From a virus (taxonomy: Duplodnaviria > Heunggongvirae > Uroviricota > Caudoviricetes): 64,000 nt of DNA. Positions 34,837 through 62,770 of this stretch are shown piece after piece (position 1 is the stretch's first letter; each line of letters opens with the position of its first letter). The translations under genes and the position numbers were made by a program. Below the pieces are notes generated by a model. It worked only from the letters and a program-made list of their open reading frames with translations, searched no databases and was not told the origin of the DNA. The DNA lies in the IMG/VR virus record IMGVR_UViG_2740892439_000009, one strand, 5' to 3'.

Positions 34837-35107
34837 AGAATTATGGCGCTTGTTGAGGAAGTCACTCCTCTTACGCACTTTGTTTTGCCATGCCGGCAGT
34901 TAGCTTCTGCCTTTGACTATTCATGCGGCAACCCCGCATTTCGCCACAATGGGCAATTCACTTTTATGGAATAAACTGGCCGTTGTGTCGATTTAATTAG
35001 CATGGCCTTACCATGCTAATTTATTCAACTTGTACAATCCTACAAATCTATCCACTCAGGCTTACACCGTCTTCGTTATTGTAGAAATGAGGATCATCAG
35101 CGTTGAA

Positions 35108-35323
35108 TCAGCTTAGAGCAACGACATTTGCTGCTGCTGGGCCTTTAGCCCCATTCTCGATAGAGAATTCGACCTGCTGGCCTTCTTCCAAAGTGCGGAA
35201 ATTATTACTCTGAATTGCCGAAAAATGTACAAAAACATCTTTACTGCCATCAGCAGGAGAAATAAAGCCAAAGCCTTTATCAGAGTTAAACCATTTTACT
35301 AAACCAGTCATTTTATTAGACAT
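35108..35323 (-). CDS. cspA: Cold-shock protein, CspA family
   Basis: [38 protein letters not shown] is near-identical in pattern to E. coli CspA; SD AAGAAGG; long upstream leader; terminator-like hairpin near 34995-35020. Confidence 0.85.
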
Positions 35324-35652
35324 AGATATTACCTTCTTAATTTTGTGAGCCACATAGTGCGGCGAGAATTTGATCTGTATAGATTGGGACTTACTTAGGC
35401 ACTTAAGGAGGAGACTCACGAAGAAGGGAAATCAGAAGATAACACTGAACTGAGACTGCTTTACTAAAACTGCTTACATAAGGTCTGTCTTGCAAACCAA
35501 CGATGCTATTAACGCATACCCCTTCTTTTCATGCAACCTTTATTTTTCAAAGATAACTAATTTTTGTCACCATTGGTTTAGTAAACGTTAACGAACCAGA
35601 CGATGCCAGACACCTTTACAGAGAACAGATGCCCGCCAATTGGCGGGCATCA

Positions 35653-39605: not shown

Positions 39606-40679
39606 ATGGCAAAAGGAAAATCCGCACTGGCACTTGCTCTGAAAAAGAAAATCGGTAGCAACGACGAAATTCAGAAAGTAACTCATTGGATTGACACAGG
39701 CTTTCCTCCGTTAAACAAAGCTATTTCTGGTCGTTACGATGGCGGCTTCCCATGTGGTCGTATCGTCGAAGTATTCGGTCCTCCAAGCGCGGGGAAAACG
39801 TTCCTTGCAACAGCAGCGATGATCTCCGCTCAAAAACAAGATGGTCTGGCGGTATTCCTCGATCATGAAAACAGTTTTGACGTTGGCCTGGCTGTAGCCA
39901 ATGGCCTGAACGCAGATGAGGATGACGGTCAGTGGGTATACAAGCAGCCAGATACCTTCGAAGACTCTGTAGAGTTGATCGGCACAATACTTAAATTGGT
40001 TCGTGATGAAGAGCTTATCCCCGAATCAGCACCTATCTGTATCGTGGCTGACTCTCTTGCGTCTATGGTTCCGAACTCCAAAGCCGAGAAGTTCGAAAAG
40101 ATGGCTGAAGGCACTGCCAAAGACAAAGATCAGCTAAACATGAACGACAATACGGCACTGGCTCGTGCGACGAGTGCGAACTTCCCTACTCTGGCTTTGT
40201 GGGCACGCAAATACAACGCCTGCATCATCTTCTTGAATCAGGTTCGCACAAAAATCGGTGTAATGTTTGGCGACCCTACTACGTCGCCAGGTGGAGATTC
40301 ACCGAAGTTCTACGCTTCTGTACGTATCCGTCTTGGTGCATCGGTGATGAAGGATGGTAAAGAGAAGATCGGCCAGGACGTAGGCGCAGAATGCATCAAA
40401 AACAAAGTTGCACCACCGTATGGCAAATGCACCTGGAAATTCTACTTCGATCCTACTCGTGGCCTCGACGTTATCGAATCGCTCGTCGAGTACATGCTGG
40501 AAGAAGGATACCTGCCAAAGAACGCCAGCGGGCGAGTTGAAATTGGTGACAAGAAATACACAAAATCGCAGATCGTCGAGATGTATCGGGAGAAGCCACT
40601 GGCTGAAATCATTGCGGCTTTGCAGGCAATCGACGACCGAAGAGCAAAAGACAACCCCACCGAGTCAGTAGAAGAGTAA
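39606..40679 (+). CDS. RecA/UvsX-like recombinase
   Basis: Walker A GPPSAGKT, RecA-like FLNQVR loop region; AAGGAG SD. Confidence 0.85.
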   Translation: MAKGKSALALALKKKIGSNDEIQKVTHWIDTGFPPLNKAISGRYDGGFPCGRIVEVFGPPSAGKTFLATAAMISAQKQDGLAVFLDHENSFDVGLAVANGLNADEDDGQWVYKQPDTFEDSVELIGTILKLVRDEELIPESAPICIVADSLASMVPNSKAEKFEKMAEGTAKDKDQLNMNDNTALARATSANFPTLALWARKYNACIIFLNQVRTKIGVMFGDPTTSPGGDSPKFYASVRIRLGASVMKDGKEKIGQDVGAECIKNKVAPPYGKCTWKFYFDPTRGLDVIESLVEYMLEEGYLPKNASGRVEIGDKKYTKSQIVEMYREKPLAEIIAALQAIDDRRAKDNPTESVEE

Positions 40680-40684
40680 ACACA

Positions 40685-40711
40685 AGGCGTCCACATGACG
40701 CCTTTTTTATC
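40685..40711 (+). terminator. Rho-independent terminator
   Basis: AGGCGTC..GACGCCT hairpin followed by TTTTTTAT. Confidence 0.6.
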
Positions 40712-40771
40712 TCTTGAAAATACATAAGTACTTACTTATTATTTTCGCATAACAACCACATAGGAAAACAC

Positions 40772-40972
40772 ATGATCAAAATCTATCTATTGGCAGTAGC
40801 CACAGGCCTTTCAGTGGCTCTCATCTACGGTTTACTGGTTCCATCGCTGATTTCTACCAAGAGTGATTTAGCCGTCATGTTTGGAGTTGTCGTTGGTTTT
40901 GGCGCTCCAGTAATCGGTCTTATTGGTGGTCGTAAGTTTATTAACTCATTAATCAAAGCAAAGGGGAAATAA
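40772..40972 (+). CDS. Small membrane protein
   Basis: Two hydrophobic segments; conserved start context. Confidence 0.45.
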   Translation: MIKIYLLAVATGLSVALIYGLLVPSLISTKSDLAVMFGVVVGFGAPVIGLIGGRKFINSLIKAKGK

Positions 40973-43461: not shown

Positions 43462-43996
43462 CACCGCTGACAGCATACACAATCAACTACCGCTGATAGC
43501 ATATCGAGAGTCTATCTCACCGCTCACAGCATACTTTACTCGATTTTTTACCGCTGACAGCATACTTAAGACATTGCATGAATAATGTGTACCGGTATGG
43601 GTATAACCAGAACAAAATTACCGCTGGCAGCATACGAAGGTCTGACATATGCCATTAATTACCGCTGATAGCATATCCAAACAAAAATTCCTCAATAAAA
43701 CACCGCTGACAGCATACATTCTATCAGAGAGTAGCAGGCAATAAATGCCTTTCACTACAAGCAATCAGCGCAATAGCAATAGAATGTTAGTGAGCGCAAA
43801 CCTATATGGAATGCACTCTTCGAGGTTAGTAACCACTGGGGAGGTATGACAGAGCATTGAGTGGTGATAGATGATTTACCGCTCACAGCATACGTTCATC
43901 TCACTATACCGCTGGTAGCATATCTTTAACCGTTCACAGCATACTTTTCAGAAAAATAGCCGCTGATAGCATACATTTCACCGCTGACAGCATATC
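43462..43996. repeat. Iteron array downstream of repA (incA-like): about 12 copies of ACCGCTGACAGCATAC
   Basis: Direct repeats with variants (CTGATAGCATAT, CTCACAGCATAC, CTGGCAGCATAC) at irregular 20-45 bp spacing, interrupted by a 150-bp repeat-free gap. Confidence 0.85.
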
Positions 43997-45089
43997 AAAG
44001 CAGTTTGAGACTATTGGAAAGGATCTCAATCATCTTGATATTTTCAGGCGTCAAATTCTGCGAAAGTTCAGTTATCTTGTTGATAATGTTCTGTTTGGCA
44101 TCAATTTCCCCGGCTTTCTCATCTGGTTTTTTGGGTTCGATGTCTTCAGGTTTTGGCGGTGCGACTTTGAGTTTTGGATTGCGGCTGTGAATCTGGATAT
44201 AGATCGACCGCCCACGCTTAATCTCGCTGTATTCGAGATAGCCCAAATCTTGGAGAGCTTTTAAGCCGTTACGTATAGTCTGATTCTGCGAGCTGACATT
44301 CCTGCTACTCAAATTGAGTCGCGCACGCAATCGAGCAAGCGATACCGGCGCAGGCTTGGTTGGAAGACTTTCGATGAAGGTGTACAGAGCCTGTGCTGTT
44401 TCTTTGCGTGGTAGCTTATTGATAACCTTTAACTGCAAAAGAACCTTATGGTCAAAGCGATATAGTTCGGCCAGCTTCGGTTCTGCATAGAACACCACCG
44501 TATCTTTCTGCTCGTTGTAGTCCACGCTATTGATGAGGTGCACCATCAGAAGCGAGATCTTGTTAGAGCCGTCGACGTTCTTTTCTTCATACGTTCTCTG
44601 GAAAGACAGAGTTGTACGCATGATCTTCAAAAGACTGTTTGTAAGCCGGTCGCGGAGTGTTTTGCGGATCTGTGACGATGGATAGCCACAAAACTTCGCA
44701 AATTTCGTGATGCTTAACTCGACACGACCATTAGGTTCGCCGTATTCTGCCAGCGAACGCACAACGCCCACCCACGTTTTGAAATCATGATCCATGTCCA
44801 GGCGAGGACCGGTTATCTTGATATCGGAATAGCCTTCAGAACGGGCTACTTCGAGCTGGACAAGCTCCTTTGAAGCATCGATCTCATTTGGCTTGTTACG
44901 TTTACTGTATTTTGTTCCCTTAAGCGTGGGGACGAACAACCCCAGTCGCATCAACGCAATTGGTTGGACTGTATTGTTGCTATTAGGGACAAGTTCCCCT
45001 GTGTACAATTCAAGGGAACCTTCTTCAAAGTTGTCGATGTTATCTTCTACTTCTTTGTTATTTTTACCTTTTTTATTTTTTGTGGACAT
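43995..45089 (-). CDS. repA: Iteron-binding replication initiator RepA (P1/RepFIB family)
   Basis: NSNNTVQPIALMRLGLFVP, GYSDIKITGPRLDMDHDFKTW and IHSRNPKLK match the P1 RepA pattern as recalled; flanked by iterons on both sides. Start placed at the internal ATG because the longer ORF would run across the origin iterons. Confidence 0.85.
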   Translation of the reverse strand: MSTKNKKGKNNKEVEDNIDNFEEGSLELYTGELVPNSNNTVQPIALMRLGLFVPTLKGTKYSKRNKPNEIDASKELVQLEVARSEGYSDIKITGPRLDMDHDFKTWVGVVRSLAEYGEPNGRVELSITKFAKFCGYPSSQIRKTLRDRLTNSLLKIMRTTLSFQRTYEEKNVDGSNKISLLMVHLINSVDYNEQKDTVVFYAEPKLAELYRFDHKVLLQLKVINKLPRKETAQALYTFIESLPTKPAPVSLARLRARLNLSSRNVSSQNQTIRNGLKALQDLGYLEYSEIKRGRSIYIQIHSRNPKLKVAPPKPEDIEPKKPDEKAGEIDAKQNIINKITELSQNLTPENIKMIEILSNSLKLL

Positions 45090-45109
45090 GTGGACACCTT
45101 TGTCATTCA

Positions 45110-45211
45110 ACCGCTGACAGCATACTTGATTTGCCGCTGACAGAATACCAAAAACAGTTGGCAGCATACGGTGAACCGCTGACAGACTATCAATTACCGC
45201 TGACAGCATAC
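45110..45211. repeat. Origin iterons upstream of repA (incC-like): 4-5 copies of ACCGCTGACAGCATAC
   Basis: Same 16-bp repeat family as the downstream array. Confidence 0.8.
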
Positions 45212-61219: not shown

Positions 61220-61450
61220 ATGTCATACCCGACTAATGTCGTTGCGCTCGTAGAGAGCGATTTTCTGGCCCAGGCTCGTGAAATGATGAAAGATCGTGAG
61301 CAGGCTTTCAACTTGTACGAGTGGGCAATTAAGTGCTTGCATCTTGGCGAGCATCGCGAACTTGTTGAACAGCTTTTAGGTGAGTTGATCAATGAGGTGT
61401 TTGCCTTGAATGTTCAACTACATGGTCGAGAAAATAATCAATCACAATGA
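61220..61450 (+). CDS. Hypothetical small protein
   Basis: 77-aa ORF with AAGGAAACCAACATG context. Confidence 0.4.
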   Translation: MSYPTNVVALVESDFLAQAREMMKDREQAFNLYEWAIKCLHLGEHRELVEQLLGELINEVFALNVQLHGRENNQSQ

Positions 61451-62029
61451 TAGATAAGTACAAACTATTCATAAAGTGAATTGTAAGTGCTAAGATCTGA
61501 TAGTTTCCAGTCGTAGACTGGAGGCTCGACCTGATGGGTGGGGGTAAGCGTCACTGGCGTCAGGTTTAAAAAAGCTCACTACCAGCGTAGAACCGGTGCC
61601 GTATAGGTGTCGGGGAAGGGGGAACCAAAGTGAGCAGAGACAAGGGTCACTTTATGATTGTCGAGTCTGGGGTGTTTCGAGAGGTTGAATCCAGTACTCC
61701 CCTTCATAAAGTGTGGGAAGATCTCGGTTCTGGGGTGCTGTCATCCATAACTTCCCAAGTCTAAGCTGGCAGTAGACTTAGACCATAGCTTTTCAGGTTA
61801 TGAAACGACCAGGTTGGTGAGGAATTTTATACTCACCTCCCTGGGAGAGTATTACCTGAAAAGACAACCTCTCACTTCGTTCGAGGTGAACTTCACTCAC
61901 TTCGTTCGTTCAGTTCAGGTTTATAAAAACCTGTTCTGGGAAGTAATTTGTTTATTTTAATAATTATTAACACGCACGCGTGTGCGCACGCGCGAGGAAA
62001 AATCGGCGCGGCGCTTGATTCAGGAGTTT

Positions 62030-62622
62030 ATATGACGACGAAGACACCAGCCCGATCGCAAGCAAAAACTCGCAAAAAAGACAAAAACAAAAATTCTCCC
62101 CGCACCAATCCCACAACGTCTGTCGTAGAGTTCAATCCCCAGCTTAAAACCGTGAAAATCTTTAGTGATGGCTCTTGCCTTAAAAATCCGGGTGGCCCGG
62201 GCGGTTACGGTATCGTTCTCCAGTATCGTGGTGAGGAACGCGAGTTCTCAGATGGTTTTCATAGCACCACCAATAACCGCATGGAGATGATGGGGGCACT
62301 TATCGGGCTGGAGCGTTTGAAATATCCATGCAACGTTATTTTGCACTCTGATAGCCAGTATCTGAAAAACGGCATGACACAGTGGATGAAATGGTGGAAA
62401 CGCAATGGATGGATGACTTCTGACAAAAAACCGGTAAAGAATGTTGATCTGTGGAAGCGTCTGGATGAGGCCGCAAGTCGACATAATGTTCGCTGGAAGT
62501 GGGTTAAAGGTCACGCCGGGCATCGTGAAAATGAAATATGTGATCGACTCGCGAAGATCGCAGCTTTTTCAGCAGCAGATATGCCTCACAAGAAAGATAT
62601 TGGTTTTGTTTATAACAAATAG
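62030..62622 (+). CDS. rnhA: Ribonuclease HI
   Basis: [52 protein letters not shown]; CAGGAG SD. Confidence 0.85.
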
Positions 62623-62770
62623 TAAGTAAGTGTTTACCTATCATTTTAAATCATGTATCTTATCGGCGTCAGGATGACAATGTGTCGGTAAGACACAGTT
62701 CCAGGATGGAACGAGAAAGGCGGCTGGCGATTGCCAGCCGCAACTCTTTCTGACACTGGATGGAGTCCAC

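Follow-up and report, generated by a model that had tools for sequence, protein, structure and literature searches.

The gap upstream of rnhA in the phage-plasmid studied here very probably harbors a stand-alone gene whose product is a large, highly structured noncoding RNA (ncRNA) of about 450 nt, made as a discrete transcript. Our verdict is that this RNA constitutes a new family of large structured ncRNA. It is neither an rnhA leader nor a protein gene, and it is probably not a replication origin or a packaging site.

The window, that is, the whole 64,000-nt stretch of DNA analyzed, is an SSU5-like, pECOH89-like phage-plasmid. Between a small ORF and rnhA lies a gap (61451-62031) that holds no conserved ORF and only ORFs of 48 aa or less, in agreement with the gene-free region of about 550 bp described in the initial annotation. 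This gap upstream of rnhA is present in every relative compared. The features of the locus are as follows.

61220..61450, + strand: small ORF (phrog_5343), 76 aa from a conserved ATG; acidic, three-helix
61450..61467, no strand: half-degenerate copy, ATAGATAAGTACAAACTA, of the dispersed palindromic box ATAGGTAAGTnCTTACCTAT
61468..61496, + strand: sigma-70-like promoter, -35 TTCATA (61468-73), 17-nt spacer, -10 TAAGAT (61491-96)
61503..61950, + strand: structured ncRNA, about 450 nt, from conservation, fold z-score, covariation and RNA-seq of the Cyrano homologue
61946..61969, + strand: AT/U-rich tract, variable in sequence and length, probable termination zone of the RNA
61970..62002, + strand: GC block, a 25-nt alternating run with the hairpin CGCGUG-UGCG-CACGCG, then GAGGAAAAA
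62032..62622, + strand: rnhA, ATG start at 62032; RNase HI whose N-terminal tail is basic and variable

To call the region "upstream of rnhA", as was done initially, is misleading: the RNA travels with its 5' neighbor and not with rnhA, the small ORF always being found immediately 5' of the RNA gene. The small ORF has neither a Pfam hit nor a PDB fold match, and a Rop-like protein was rejected on these grounds. Since its product is acidic and silent in lysogeny, it is unlikely to be an RNA-binding partner of the ncRNA. A tRNA/tmRNA scan detected nothing at the gap region, and PADLOC found no defense-system hits among the neighboring genes. The locus lies where a conserved module gives way to variable cargo.

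In the relatives, the core of the region (approximately 61503-61950) is more conserved than either flanking gene, with mean pairwise identities of 0.9-1.0 as compared with about 0.75-0.9 in both flanking ORFs. The + strand folds with a minimum free energy (MFE) of -170 kcal/mol (z = -5.8 against dinucleotide shuffles), and folding of the - strand is weaker. Together with the retention of the gap in all relatives, these values indicate that the region is not a product of chance. For covariation analysis, we used an alignment of 23 diverse relatives comprising 104 pairs and 2355 cells, 92.9% of which pair. Compensatory double changes were detected in 46 of the 104 pairs versus 17.4 +/- 3.0 in shuffles, a count reached by none of 500 shuffles. 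When the partner was shifted by 1-3 columns as a control, only 37-48% of the cells paired, with 12-29 double-changed pairs; compensatory pairs thus go beyond what relatedness gives, as expected of a structured ncRNA gene. The covariation score was 0.208 versus at most 0.078. Because the central 300 nt are near-invariant among close relatives, the covariation signal in that part comes from about six divergent sequences (L083, L085, L147, L154, L155, and L156). Several G-U pairs on the + strand are invariant, and the opposite strand would have A-C mismatches in their place.

The fold has at least 13 helices and one long-range pseudoknot, all on the + strand.

61504..61524, + strand: P1, 5'-terminal hairpin, UUUCCAGUC / GACUGGAGG
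61528..61566, + strand: P2, with invariant loop motifs GGGUGGnGG and CUGG
61574..61635, + strand: P3, GCUCAC / GUGAGC; contains invariant ACCAGCG, the P4 hairpin and purine-rich GGGGAAGGGGGAACC
61593-61613, + strand: P4 hairpin, inside P3
61648..61713, + strand: P5, CACUUUAUGA / UCAUAAAGUG; contains P6
61663-70 / 61691-99, + strand: P6, inside P5
61679..61687, + strand: pseudoknot 5' strand, GAGAGGUUG, apical loop of P6
61714..61757, + strand: P7, UGGGAAG / CUUCCCA, with conserved internal loop AUCUCGGUUCUG and apical P8
61733-46, + strand: P8, apical to P7
61759..61783, + strand: P9 hairpin, GUCUAAG / CUUAGAC, with conserved loop CUGGCAGUAGA
61789..61863, + strand: P10/P11, long bipartite hairpin (covariation helices 11-13)
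61865..61873, + strand: pseudoknot 3' strand, CAACCUCUC, linker after P10
61882..61937, + strand: P12 and P13, 3' hairpins; P12 CGAGGUGA / UCACUUCG, P13 CAGGUUU / AAACCUG

At the P1 site, relatives carry at least six different self-complementary sequences. P2 (covariation helix 1) has all 9 pairs in 12 of 14 representatives and lacks a single one in each of the remaining two, with seven different stem sequences; it is 99.3% paired in the alignment, and both sides are changed in 8 of its 13 pairs. Changes on both sides also affect three of the five pairs in P3 (helix 2) and six of the ten in P5 (helix 4). P7 (helix 8) and P9 (helix 10) are both 100% paired, the former with four stem versions and the latter with at least eight and with both sides changed in 6 of 7 pairs. 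P8 (helix 9) covaries as well, and so does P13, although its alignment is poor in distant relatives (P12 and P13 correspond to helices 14-16). Perfect complementarity of 8-10 nt is retained at the pseudoknot in 12 of 14 representatives, and the two strands covary in four versions (GAGAGGUUG/CAACCUCUC, UGAGAGUUU/AAACUCUCA, UUUGGGUUU/AAACCCAAA, and GAGAGGUGU/ACACCUCUC), each of which is matched by 0.9% of shuffles or fewer. A pairing of GAGA (61638) with UCUC (61871) proposed by RNAalifold was dropped in favor of this covarying pseudoknot. A terminal long-range helix from the single-sequence MFE structure (ACUUCCC/GGGAAGU) was likewise rejected, because the covariation of P7 involves the nearer UGGGAAG copy and the alternative is not retained in L155 and L156.

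The internal repeats and the GC-rich palindromic block are as initially described. The 13-mer CTCACTTCGTTCG occurs in two exact copies (61871-61883 and 61896-61908), for which we estimate a chance probability of about 0.003 in 600 nt, and TCGAGTCTGGGGTG (61661) is 86% alike to TCGGTTCTGGGGTG (61724). Of the two copies of CACTTCGTTCG noted earlier, the second is the 3' strand of P12, and the first begins in the final bases of the pseudoknot 3' strand and continues into the linker that precedes P12. The GC block, of which the window has a single copy, consists of a perfect alternating purine/pyrimidine run (61970-61994) placed after the AT-rich spacer and enclosing the palindrome CGCGTG-TGCG-CACGCG (61977-61992). 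It is missing in L154, where rnhA is missing, and retained in L147 beside an rnhA stub. The block is thus probably part of the rnhA cassette, and on the evidence of these two loci we rejected it as a component of the RNA module.

The RNA gene has a promoter of its own. The pattern TTnAnn, 16-17 nt, TAnnnT is found at the promoter site in 14 of 14 representatives despite differing spacers; the match to consensus is 8 of 12 positions in the window, which is below the scan threshold, and up to 9 of 12 in relatives. The 5' end of the RNA is predicted from the promoter position, with transcription starting at about 61502-61503. The 3' end is placed approximately, at the U-rich tract that follows the final hairpin and conserved CUGGGAAG; our scan of the + strand there found no canonical intrinsic terminator. 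Expression data are available for the Cyrano phage-plasmid in LF82, which was analyzed by RNA-seq with strand-resolved coverage (PMC9928086 Table 1 and S1 Table). At the RNA locus, Cyrano is 98.4% identical to the window. In LB, its gene-level counts were 117 fpkm for CYRAN_81, the ORF called inside the RNA, about 9.5 for the small ORF CYRAN_80, and 8.4 for RNase H, and in macrophages CYRAN_81 rose by 6 h to about 1300 fpkm (PMC9928086). By gene-level counts in this one relative, the RNA segment is therefore transcribed in lysogens at 12-40 times the level of either neighbor, CYRAN_80 being silent, and the RNA level falls 12-40-fold ahead of rnhA. The conserved promoter and this excess over the neighbors indicate a discrete transcript with the predicted ends given above. 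With covariation and +-only G-U pairs added to the promoter and to the published RNA-seq of a 98%-identical element, the structured ncRNA that the initial annotation had offered as one option is strongly supported.

We consider it unlikely, by contrast, that the region is an R-loop primer or lytic origin resembling ColE1 RNA II or T4 oriF. Here the transcript would cross the AT-rich spacer and form a persistent RNA-DNA hybrid at the GC/GAGGAAAAA block, which the adjacent RNase HI would trim so that leading-strand synthesis is primed. ColE1 RNA II is about 555 nt long, and the distance from promoter to A-run at our locus is similar, about 500 nt. Both are multi-hairpin RNAs with G-rich segments (conserved G-rich tracts in our RNA), possible alternative pairings, an A-run after a GC-rich stretch and an adjoining RNase H function, and CGCGCGAGGAAAAA, which follows the AT-rich spacer, resembles what we take to be the ColE1 switch region, ACGCGCAGAAAAAAAGG. 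Moreover, rnhA and the GAGGAAAAA block adjoin the RNA in most relatives, and the window encodes T4-like gp32, RecA/UvsX-like and primase functions, with UvsY annotated in Cyrano. However, cumulative GC skew, an indirect indicator of where DNA synthesis starts, climbs steadily over 57-64 kb and shows neither an extremum nor a switch. A consensus scan detected no - strand promoter inside the RNA, the sole one (61509-61480) pointing away, so that our RNA differs from ColE1 RNA II in having no antisense RNA I gene over its 5' part by promoter scan; it also differs in that the neighboring small protein is without a Rop-like fold. The RNA is expressed in lysogens, where plasmid replication is served by a Rep3-type initiator gene situated elsewhere (43995-45206), and its level appears to fall before the GC block. 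It is kept without rnhA in several lineages, including L155 and L156, which also lack the A-run, and without either rnhA or the GC block in L154. In addition, the "type B" loci (such as L086 and L153), where a different RNA may fill the same slot, finish with an ordinary terminator. The lytic origin suggested initially thus has little in its favor. Host RNase HI could stand in for a missing rnhA, and a search for iterons near the Rep3 gene, aimed at locating the plasmid origin, gave nothing clear.

It is very improbable that the RNA is instead a long cis-regulatory 5' leader of rnhA, acting as an attenuator or riboswitch. As such a leader would, the RNA sits just 5' of rnhA in the same orientation, and an attenuator in the off state would give the observed 12-40-fold fall in abundance; the repeated words would also allow alternative pairings. 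A cis leader would be followed by a constant gene, but the genes downstream of this RNA vary. In at least seven lineages, the downstream gene is different or opposite in direction and the RNA is retained: rnhA is replaced or lost in L066, L055, L067, L147, L154, L155, and L156, its replacements being a lipoprotein-like gene (- strand), a UvrD-like helicase (- strand), a Tad2-like gene, or an unknown protein of 200 or 183 aa. In some relatives, the RNA is followed directly by the next operon. rnhA therefore behaves as an exchangeable cassette, a neighbor without obligatory partnership. Furthermore, about 450 nt with a pseudoknot is far above the size of known leaders, and rnhA already has a separate conserved GC hairpin and Shine-Dalgarno sequence.

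The chance that the locus is a small protein gene is negligible. CYRAN_81 (61630-61764; 44 aa, GTG start) is the sole called ORF and is listed as a "moron" in Cyrano (PMC9928086). Both the E. coli and the SSU5 clade carry it intact, and the region is transcribed. The reading frame is nonetheless disrupted in 12 of 23 relatives by -1 or -2 indels (Klebsiella clade, L040, L149, and L147) or by loss of the start codon (L083, L085, L154, L155, and L156). Its variable columns are distributed evenly over the codon positions (32/34/31), without a third-position excess, and sequence conservation spreads well beyond both ends of the ORF, about 130 nt upstream and 190 nt downstream. CYRAN_81 is a mis-called ORF, and the RNA is otherwise left out of annotation. 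Equally remote is a site acting as DNA, whether pac/cos, a recombination site (packaging and recombination having been raised initially) or iterons bound by a protein: direct and inverted repeats and the position at the module border would suit one, but pairing-preserving changes, a conserved promoter and an abundant transcript are properties of RNA, strand-specific G-U pairing and 46 compensatory base pairs are unexpected of a DNA site, the terminase genes are elsewhere in Cyrano (CYRAN_1 and CYRAN_2), the locus has no iteron-like array, and no evidence for packaging or recombination was found here.

A covariance-model scan of 61350-62100 against Rfam 15 matched no family at gathering thresholds, and relaxing the E value to 10 gave only chance matches (an HCV stem-loop and miRNAs). 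The divergent loci L083, L085, and L086 matched no Rfam family either. The negative result covers RNase P, tmRNA, 6S, group I/II introns, OLE, ROOL, GOLLD, raiA, and HEARO. We found no ncRNA described in SSU5 or pHCM2 elements in the literature, and the type B loci do not match a covariance model of the RNA's central domain. Large ncRNAs with intricate folds are rare in bacteria and phages: to our knowledge, no more than about a dozen classes have been described, each of which does, or is expected to do, sophisticated biochemistry. Like OLE, raiA, ROOL, and GOLLD, our RNA is several hundred nucleotides long and is carried by mobile elements; it has many helices and a pseudoknot, its joining regions hardly vary, its pairs covary strongly, and it is highly expressed. 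ROOL and GOLLD are carried on prophages and form cages. It differs from these in its hosts, which are Enterobacteriaceae phage-plasmids, and in showing no sequence or structure match to them (cmscan to E = 10). The C4 RNA of P1/P7 and the CI RNA of P4 are antisense RNAs of 70-80 nt processed from longer transcripts. Our RNA resembles them in being produced in the prophage state, seemingly within the phage's own regulatory circuit, but is six times larger and has a tertiary fold.

Under the stand-alone gene model, a conserved sigma-70-type promoter (-35 at 61468, -10 at 61491) is available to host RNA polymerase. From the predicted start, the transcript opens directly with hairpin P1; its helices are locked by the long-range pseudoknot that joins the P6 loop to the linker following P10, and its level drops sharply ahead of rnhA. 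The RNA would not act as a DNA site, an mRNA, or an rnhA leader. We tentatively propose that it could work in trans through its three-dimensional fold, either binding or scaffolding a protein or ligand or acting as a catalyst. The box ATAGGTAAGTnCTTACCTAT occurs 12 times in the window versus 1.5 expected and stands before the RNA promoter in the relatives examined; we infer that it is a repressor operator. Because the RNA promoter shares this palindromic box with silent lytic operons, the gene would be part of the regulatory circuit of the phage-plasmid itself. The box is half-degenerate in the E. coli clade, where the RNA appears to be about as abundant in lysogens as the repressor and RepA transcripts. 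The SSU5 "DNA-metabolism module" would accordingly include an RNA gene wired into a regulon of dispersed operators. With moderate confidence, we regard the RNA as defining a new class of large functional RNAs with a pseudoknot, specific to SSU5-type phage-plasmids, which, like OLE, ROOL, GOLLD or raiA, would act in the plasmid-prophage state as an RNP, an oligomeric assembly or a ribozyme, with the type B RNA as a non-homologous analogue in the same slot of some relatives. If so, possible targets are the lysis-lysogeny decision, copy number, or the host.

SSU5-like phage-plasmids spread ESBL and carbapenemase genes, which gives the RNA a clinical link, and in their annotation it is absent or labelled a hypothetical protein "moron". 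It resides in the best-studied bacteria, with E. coli genetics and two available systems, LF82/Cyrano and pECOH89, to draw on. When IMG/VR was scanned for exact matches to three conserved 19-20-mers and to a gapped pattern, only close SSU5-group relatives came up, plus chance matches (L080, L151, and L152), and protein-guided alignment of the small ORF against genome and metagenome contigs returned only relatives with at least 79% identity; divergent homologues of the locus were obtained by exact-protein look-ups. The structured RNA is present in 232 of 5,426 complete E. coli genomes, in one case on an O104:H4 plasmid, and in 687 PLSDB plasmids from Klebsiella, Escherichia, Enterobacter, Salmonella, and others.

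The gap between a small open reading frame (ORF) of family phrog_5343 and rnhA encodes an RNA on the + strand (approximately 61503-61950). This RNA (hereafter the RNA) belongs to a new family of large, pseudoknotted noncoding RNAs (ncRNAs) from SSU5-type phage-plasmids and is made as a discrete transcript. The initial annotation had listed a structured ncRNA among several candidates for this gap, and covariation, the + strand fold, a conserved promoter and published RNA-Seq data of the phage-plasmid Cyrano bear that candidate out. The relevant features of the window are as follows.

43995-45206, - strand: Rep3-type plasmid initiator
61220..61450, + strand: small ORF, 5′ border of the gap
61450-61467: degenerate copy of a palindromic box, ahead of the RNA promoter
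61468-61496, + strand: sigma-70-like promoter of the RNA (TTCATA, 17 nt, TAAGAT)
61970-62002: GC block, with a 25-nt perfect alternating purine/pyrimidine run and a hairpin (CGCGUG-UGCG-CACGCG), then GAGGAAAAA
62032, + strand: start ATG of rnhA, 3′ border of the gap

Over the 1.7 kb around the RNA, identity is 98-99% with Escherichia phages CMS-2020a, Cyrano and PhiR41_1, 81% with Salmonella phage SSU5 and 77% with Klebsiella phage-plasmids, and the gap itself (61451-62031) matches that of E. coli plasmid pECOH89 (NC_023916.1) at 100% identity. These identities place the stretch with the SSU5-group phage-plasmids. The locus sits in a + strand DNA-metabolism module with the gene order nrdAB, thymidylate synthase, DHFR, DnaQ-like exonuclease, Dam, small ORF, gap and rnhA; elsewhere, the window encodes a DnaG-like primase, DNA ligase, tyrosine recombinase, Pol III alpha, a gp32-like SSB and a RecA-like protein.

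As the initial annotation had noted, the gap holds no plausible ORF: all are ≤48 aa. It is present but unannotated in SSU5, PhiR41_1 and the Klebsiella phage, while a 44-aa ORF, CYRAN_81, has been called within it in Cyrano. Indels of -1 or -2 break the CYRAN_81 frame in the related loci L040, L149/L075 and L147 and throughout the Klebsiella clade, its start codon is lost in L083, L085, L154, L155 and L156, and its variable columns number 32, 34 and 31 at the three codon positions. Most relatives have no intact version of another local ORF (61814..61960). By this comparison, the locus is not a protein gene.

The promoter matches the consensus at 8 of 12 positions, under the threshold of a generic promoter scan. 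Nonetheless, TTnAnn and TAnnnT, 16-17 nt apart, occur at the same place in 14/14 representatives, with unrelated spacers and up to 9/12 matches. The P1 hairpin, for which relatives carry at least six different self-complementary sequences, directly follows the predicted start (~61502/3), and a U-rich tract 3′ of the last hairpin and of the conserved CUGGGAAG is a candidate 3′ end. The promoter region of the E. coli clade (TTCATAAAGTG...GTGCTAAGATCT, 61468-61498) resembles a partial copy of a segment inside the RNA (TTCATAAAGTG-TGGGAAGATCT, 61703-61724), and the 5′ strand of P5 (61647-61657) is complementary to this upstream copy as well.

Expression was assessed from RNA-Seq of E. coli LF82, in which Cyrano is the plasmid called pLF82; strand-resolved coverage profiles are available for this strain (PMC9928086). 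CYRAN_81 (Cyrano 78657-78791) corresponds to window 61630-61764, within the RNA core, and is listed as a "moron" expressed 12-fold over Cyrano background (PMC9928086). Its log2 values were 6.8/6.9 (LB stationary), 9.3/9.0, 6.9/6.9, 9.0/8.2 and 10.35/10.3 (macrophages, 6 h), compared with 3.4/3.1 up to 5.2/5.0 for the small ORF (CYRAN_80) and 2.6/3.4 up to 5.0/4.8 for RNase H (CYRAN_82) (PMC9928086 S1 Table). From these values, CYRAN_81 reached 117 fpkm in LB against 9.5 and 8.4 for CYRAN_80 and CYRAN_82, and was roughly 40-fold above its neighbors in macrophages. Because CYRAN_81 lies far above both neighbors in lysogens, the transcript is discrete and not co-extensive with rnhA mRNA; gene-level counts in this relative thus establish that the RNA is made in the lysogenic state. 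In level and condition profile it is akin to three other Cyrano genes, namely the putative repressor (CYRAN_45), the integrase (CYRAN_44) and RepA.

Folding energy is -170.1 kcal/mol for the + strand (z = -5.8), compared with -137.9 kcal/mol for the - strand (z = -4.3). With 45 distinct close relatives as input, RNAalifold predicted 126 pairs, of which only 7 had double changes, because the center of the RNA barely varies. We therefore sought divergent homologues through the co-located small ORF and exact-protein look-ups, obtaining L085, L155, L156, L083 and L154 (nhmmer scores of 361, 161, 169, 50 and 9 bits). Across 23 aligned representatives, a structure curated by hand (16 helices, 104 pairs) keeps pairing in 92.9% of cells. 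Both sides have changed in 46 of the 104 pairs, compared with 17.4 +/- 3.0 in shuffles (0/500 as high). When partners were slid by 1-3 columns, 37-48% of cells paired and 12-29 pairs were doubly changed, and the covariation score was ≤0.078 as opposed to 0.208. P2 has seven different stem sequences and retains 9/9 pairs in 12 of 14 representatives and 8/9 in the remaining pair of representatives; P7 and P9 both keep 7/7 pairs, in four and at least eight stem versions, respectively. Several invariant G-U pairs are possible on the + strand only.

Between the P6 apical loop (GAGAGGUUG, 61679-87) and the linker that follows P10 (CAACCUCUC, 61865-73), complementarity is perfect. The two strands of this pseudoknot change in coordination in L085 (UGAGAGUUU / AAACUCUCA), L083 (UUUGGGUUU / AAACCCAAA) and L156 (GAGAGGUGU / ACACCUCUC), each version is equalled by ≤0.9% of shuffled linkers, and the complementarity spans at least 8 nt in 12/14 representatives. 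The RNAalifold pairing of the 3′ strand, which is lost in L083, was dropped in favor of the pseudoknot. As for the repeats reported initially, CTCACTTCGTTCG does occur twice exactly (61871, 61896), and TCGAGTCTGGGGTG and TCGGTTCTGGGGTG are 86% alike. The first copy of CACUUCGUUCG begins within the final bases of the pseudoknot strand and extends into the linker that precedes P12, and the second is the P12 3′ strand; CUGGGGUG is found once in P6 and once in P8. Such repeated words would permit alternative pairings, for example of either CACUUCG copy with CGAGGUG and of either UGGGAAG copy with CUUCCCA.

In an alignment of 16 diverse relatives, mean pairwise identity is 0.88-1.0 over the core (61517-61932), reaching 1.0 at 61874-61903, compared with 0.72-0.90 for the small ORF and 0.45-0.90 for rnhA; variable stretches (61458-61516 and 61933-61977) flank the core. 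A noncoding core that is more conserved than the adjoining genes must be under selection of its own. The RNA occurs in 687 PLSDB plasmids, 677 of them non-mobilisable (hosts: Klebsiella 310, Escherichia 195, Enterobacter 88, Salmonella 49, Citrobacter 24, Cronobacter 10, and others), in ~80 IMG/VR contigs, at 54 metagenome loci and in 232 of 5,426 complete E. coli genomes; in 15 sampled matches from the latter, RefSeq annotates no feature under it.

The RNA does lie upstream of rnhA in the window, as first described, but is not tied to that gene. A lipoprotein-like gene on the other strand replaces rnhA in L066, rnhA is missing from L055 and L067, and it is a stub adjoining a UvrD-like helicase in Buttiauxella plasmid L147. 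L154, L155 and L156 lack rnhA, and unknown proteins or Tad2-like genes come next instead. The region 3′ of the RNA is a variable cargo spot, with Tad2-like (anti-Thoeris) genes at L155 3605-3913 and L156 3098-3409. In L154 (2840-2980), the RNA is directly followed by a box, a promoter and a GGCGGCTGGC..GCCAGCCGC hairpin, the arrangement found after rnhA in the window (62625-62741), which makes rnhA plus the GC block look like an insertable or exchangeable cassette. Given such a cassette, the GC block would most simply be a leader or regulatory region of rnhA. The palindromic character first noted for this block holds: purines and pyrimidines alternate without exception over 61970-61994, a stretch that includes a palindrome and is a candidate for Z-DNA. 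The block is unique within the window and kept in rnhA-carrying relatives.

Could the RNA instead prime replication, as at origins of the ColE1 RNA II or T4 R-loop kind? The order of a ~500-nt structured RNA, an AT-rich stretch, GC followed by GAGGAAAAA, and RNase H is reminiscent of both, the GC block presumably resembles the ColE1 RNA/DNA switch region, and the element encodes T4-like replication and recombination proteins. However, neither a GC-skew extremum nor an antisense promoter was found, Cyrano lysogens express the RNA, relatives lacking rnhA or the GC block keep it, and L155 and L156 have lost the A-run. A primer is therefore an unlikely reading, to which we still give some weight because host RNase HI could substitute where rnhA is absent. 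As its mode of action, we favor that of a folded RNA that would act in trans by binding a protein or ligand.

A palindromic box, ATAGGTAAGTnCTTACCTAT, precedes or overlaps every RNA promoter examined. Its 14-nt core has 12 copies in the window (1.5 expected; 0/100 shuffles):

8088, 14347, 21298, 24954, 27137, 37204: box cores
37443, 40723, 46181, 50865, 60413, 62625: box cores, continued

The copies are nearly all intergenic, their right half is often the -35 hexamer, and in the published RNA-Seq of the Cyrano lysogen, genes downstream of intact boxes are silent. The box is probably the operator of the element's repressor. C1 operators of phage P1 are dispersed, and the presumed operators here would be likewise. 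The box of the RNA is half-degenerate in the E. coli clade, which could explain expression in lysogeny. It is intact in the SSU5 and Klebsiella clades, where the RNA may therefore be transcribed early in the lytic cycle.

The same synteny of small ORF, gap (500-700 bp) and RNase H occurs in L086-L088 and L153. These gaps (type B; L086 4226-4937, L153 406-900, also L087 and L088) are 66% alike over 171 nt, with fold z-scores of -6.6 (L086) and -2.9 (L153). Neither nhmmer nor a covariance model of the central domain of the RNA detected kinship between them and the RNA, and the L086 gap had no Rfam match. The slot may thus hold a second, non-homologous RNA type. L086 also carries two RNase H genes in tandem.

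Other RNAs were seen in the window. The cspA thermoregulator 5′ UTR (Rfam RF01766) is matched over its full length at 35083-35501 (- strand; 185.7 bits), which implies that the phage-plasmid carries a cold-shock-protein gene plus an RNA thermosensor. A four-tRNA cluster (Asn-GTT, Tyr-GTA, Thr-TGT, Ser-TGA) lies at 22080-22636 (+ strand); the Cyrano "ORF" that overlaps it, CYRAN_40, probably owes its listing as a moron to tRNA reads. The published LF82 RNA-Seq puts the "hypothetical protein" CYRAN_43 (Cyrano 40268-40822; approximately mapped to 23.2-23.8 kb of the window, - strand) far ahead of every other Cyrano transcript in lysogens, at ~7,000 fpkm and 723 times background; it lies where GC content is low (34%), adjoining the tRNA cluster and integrase.
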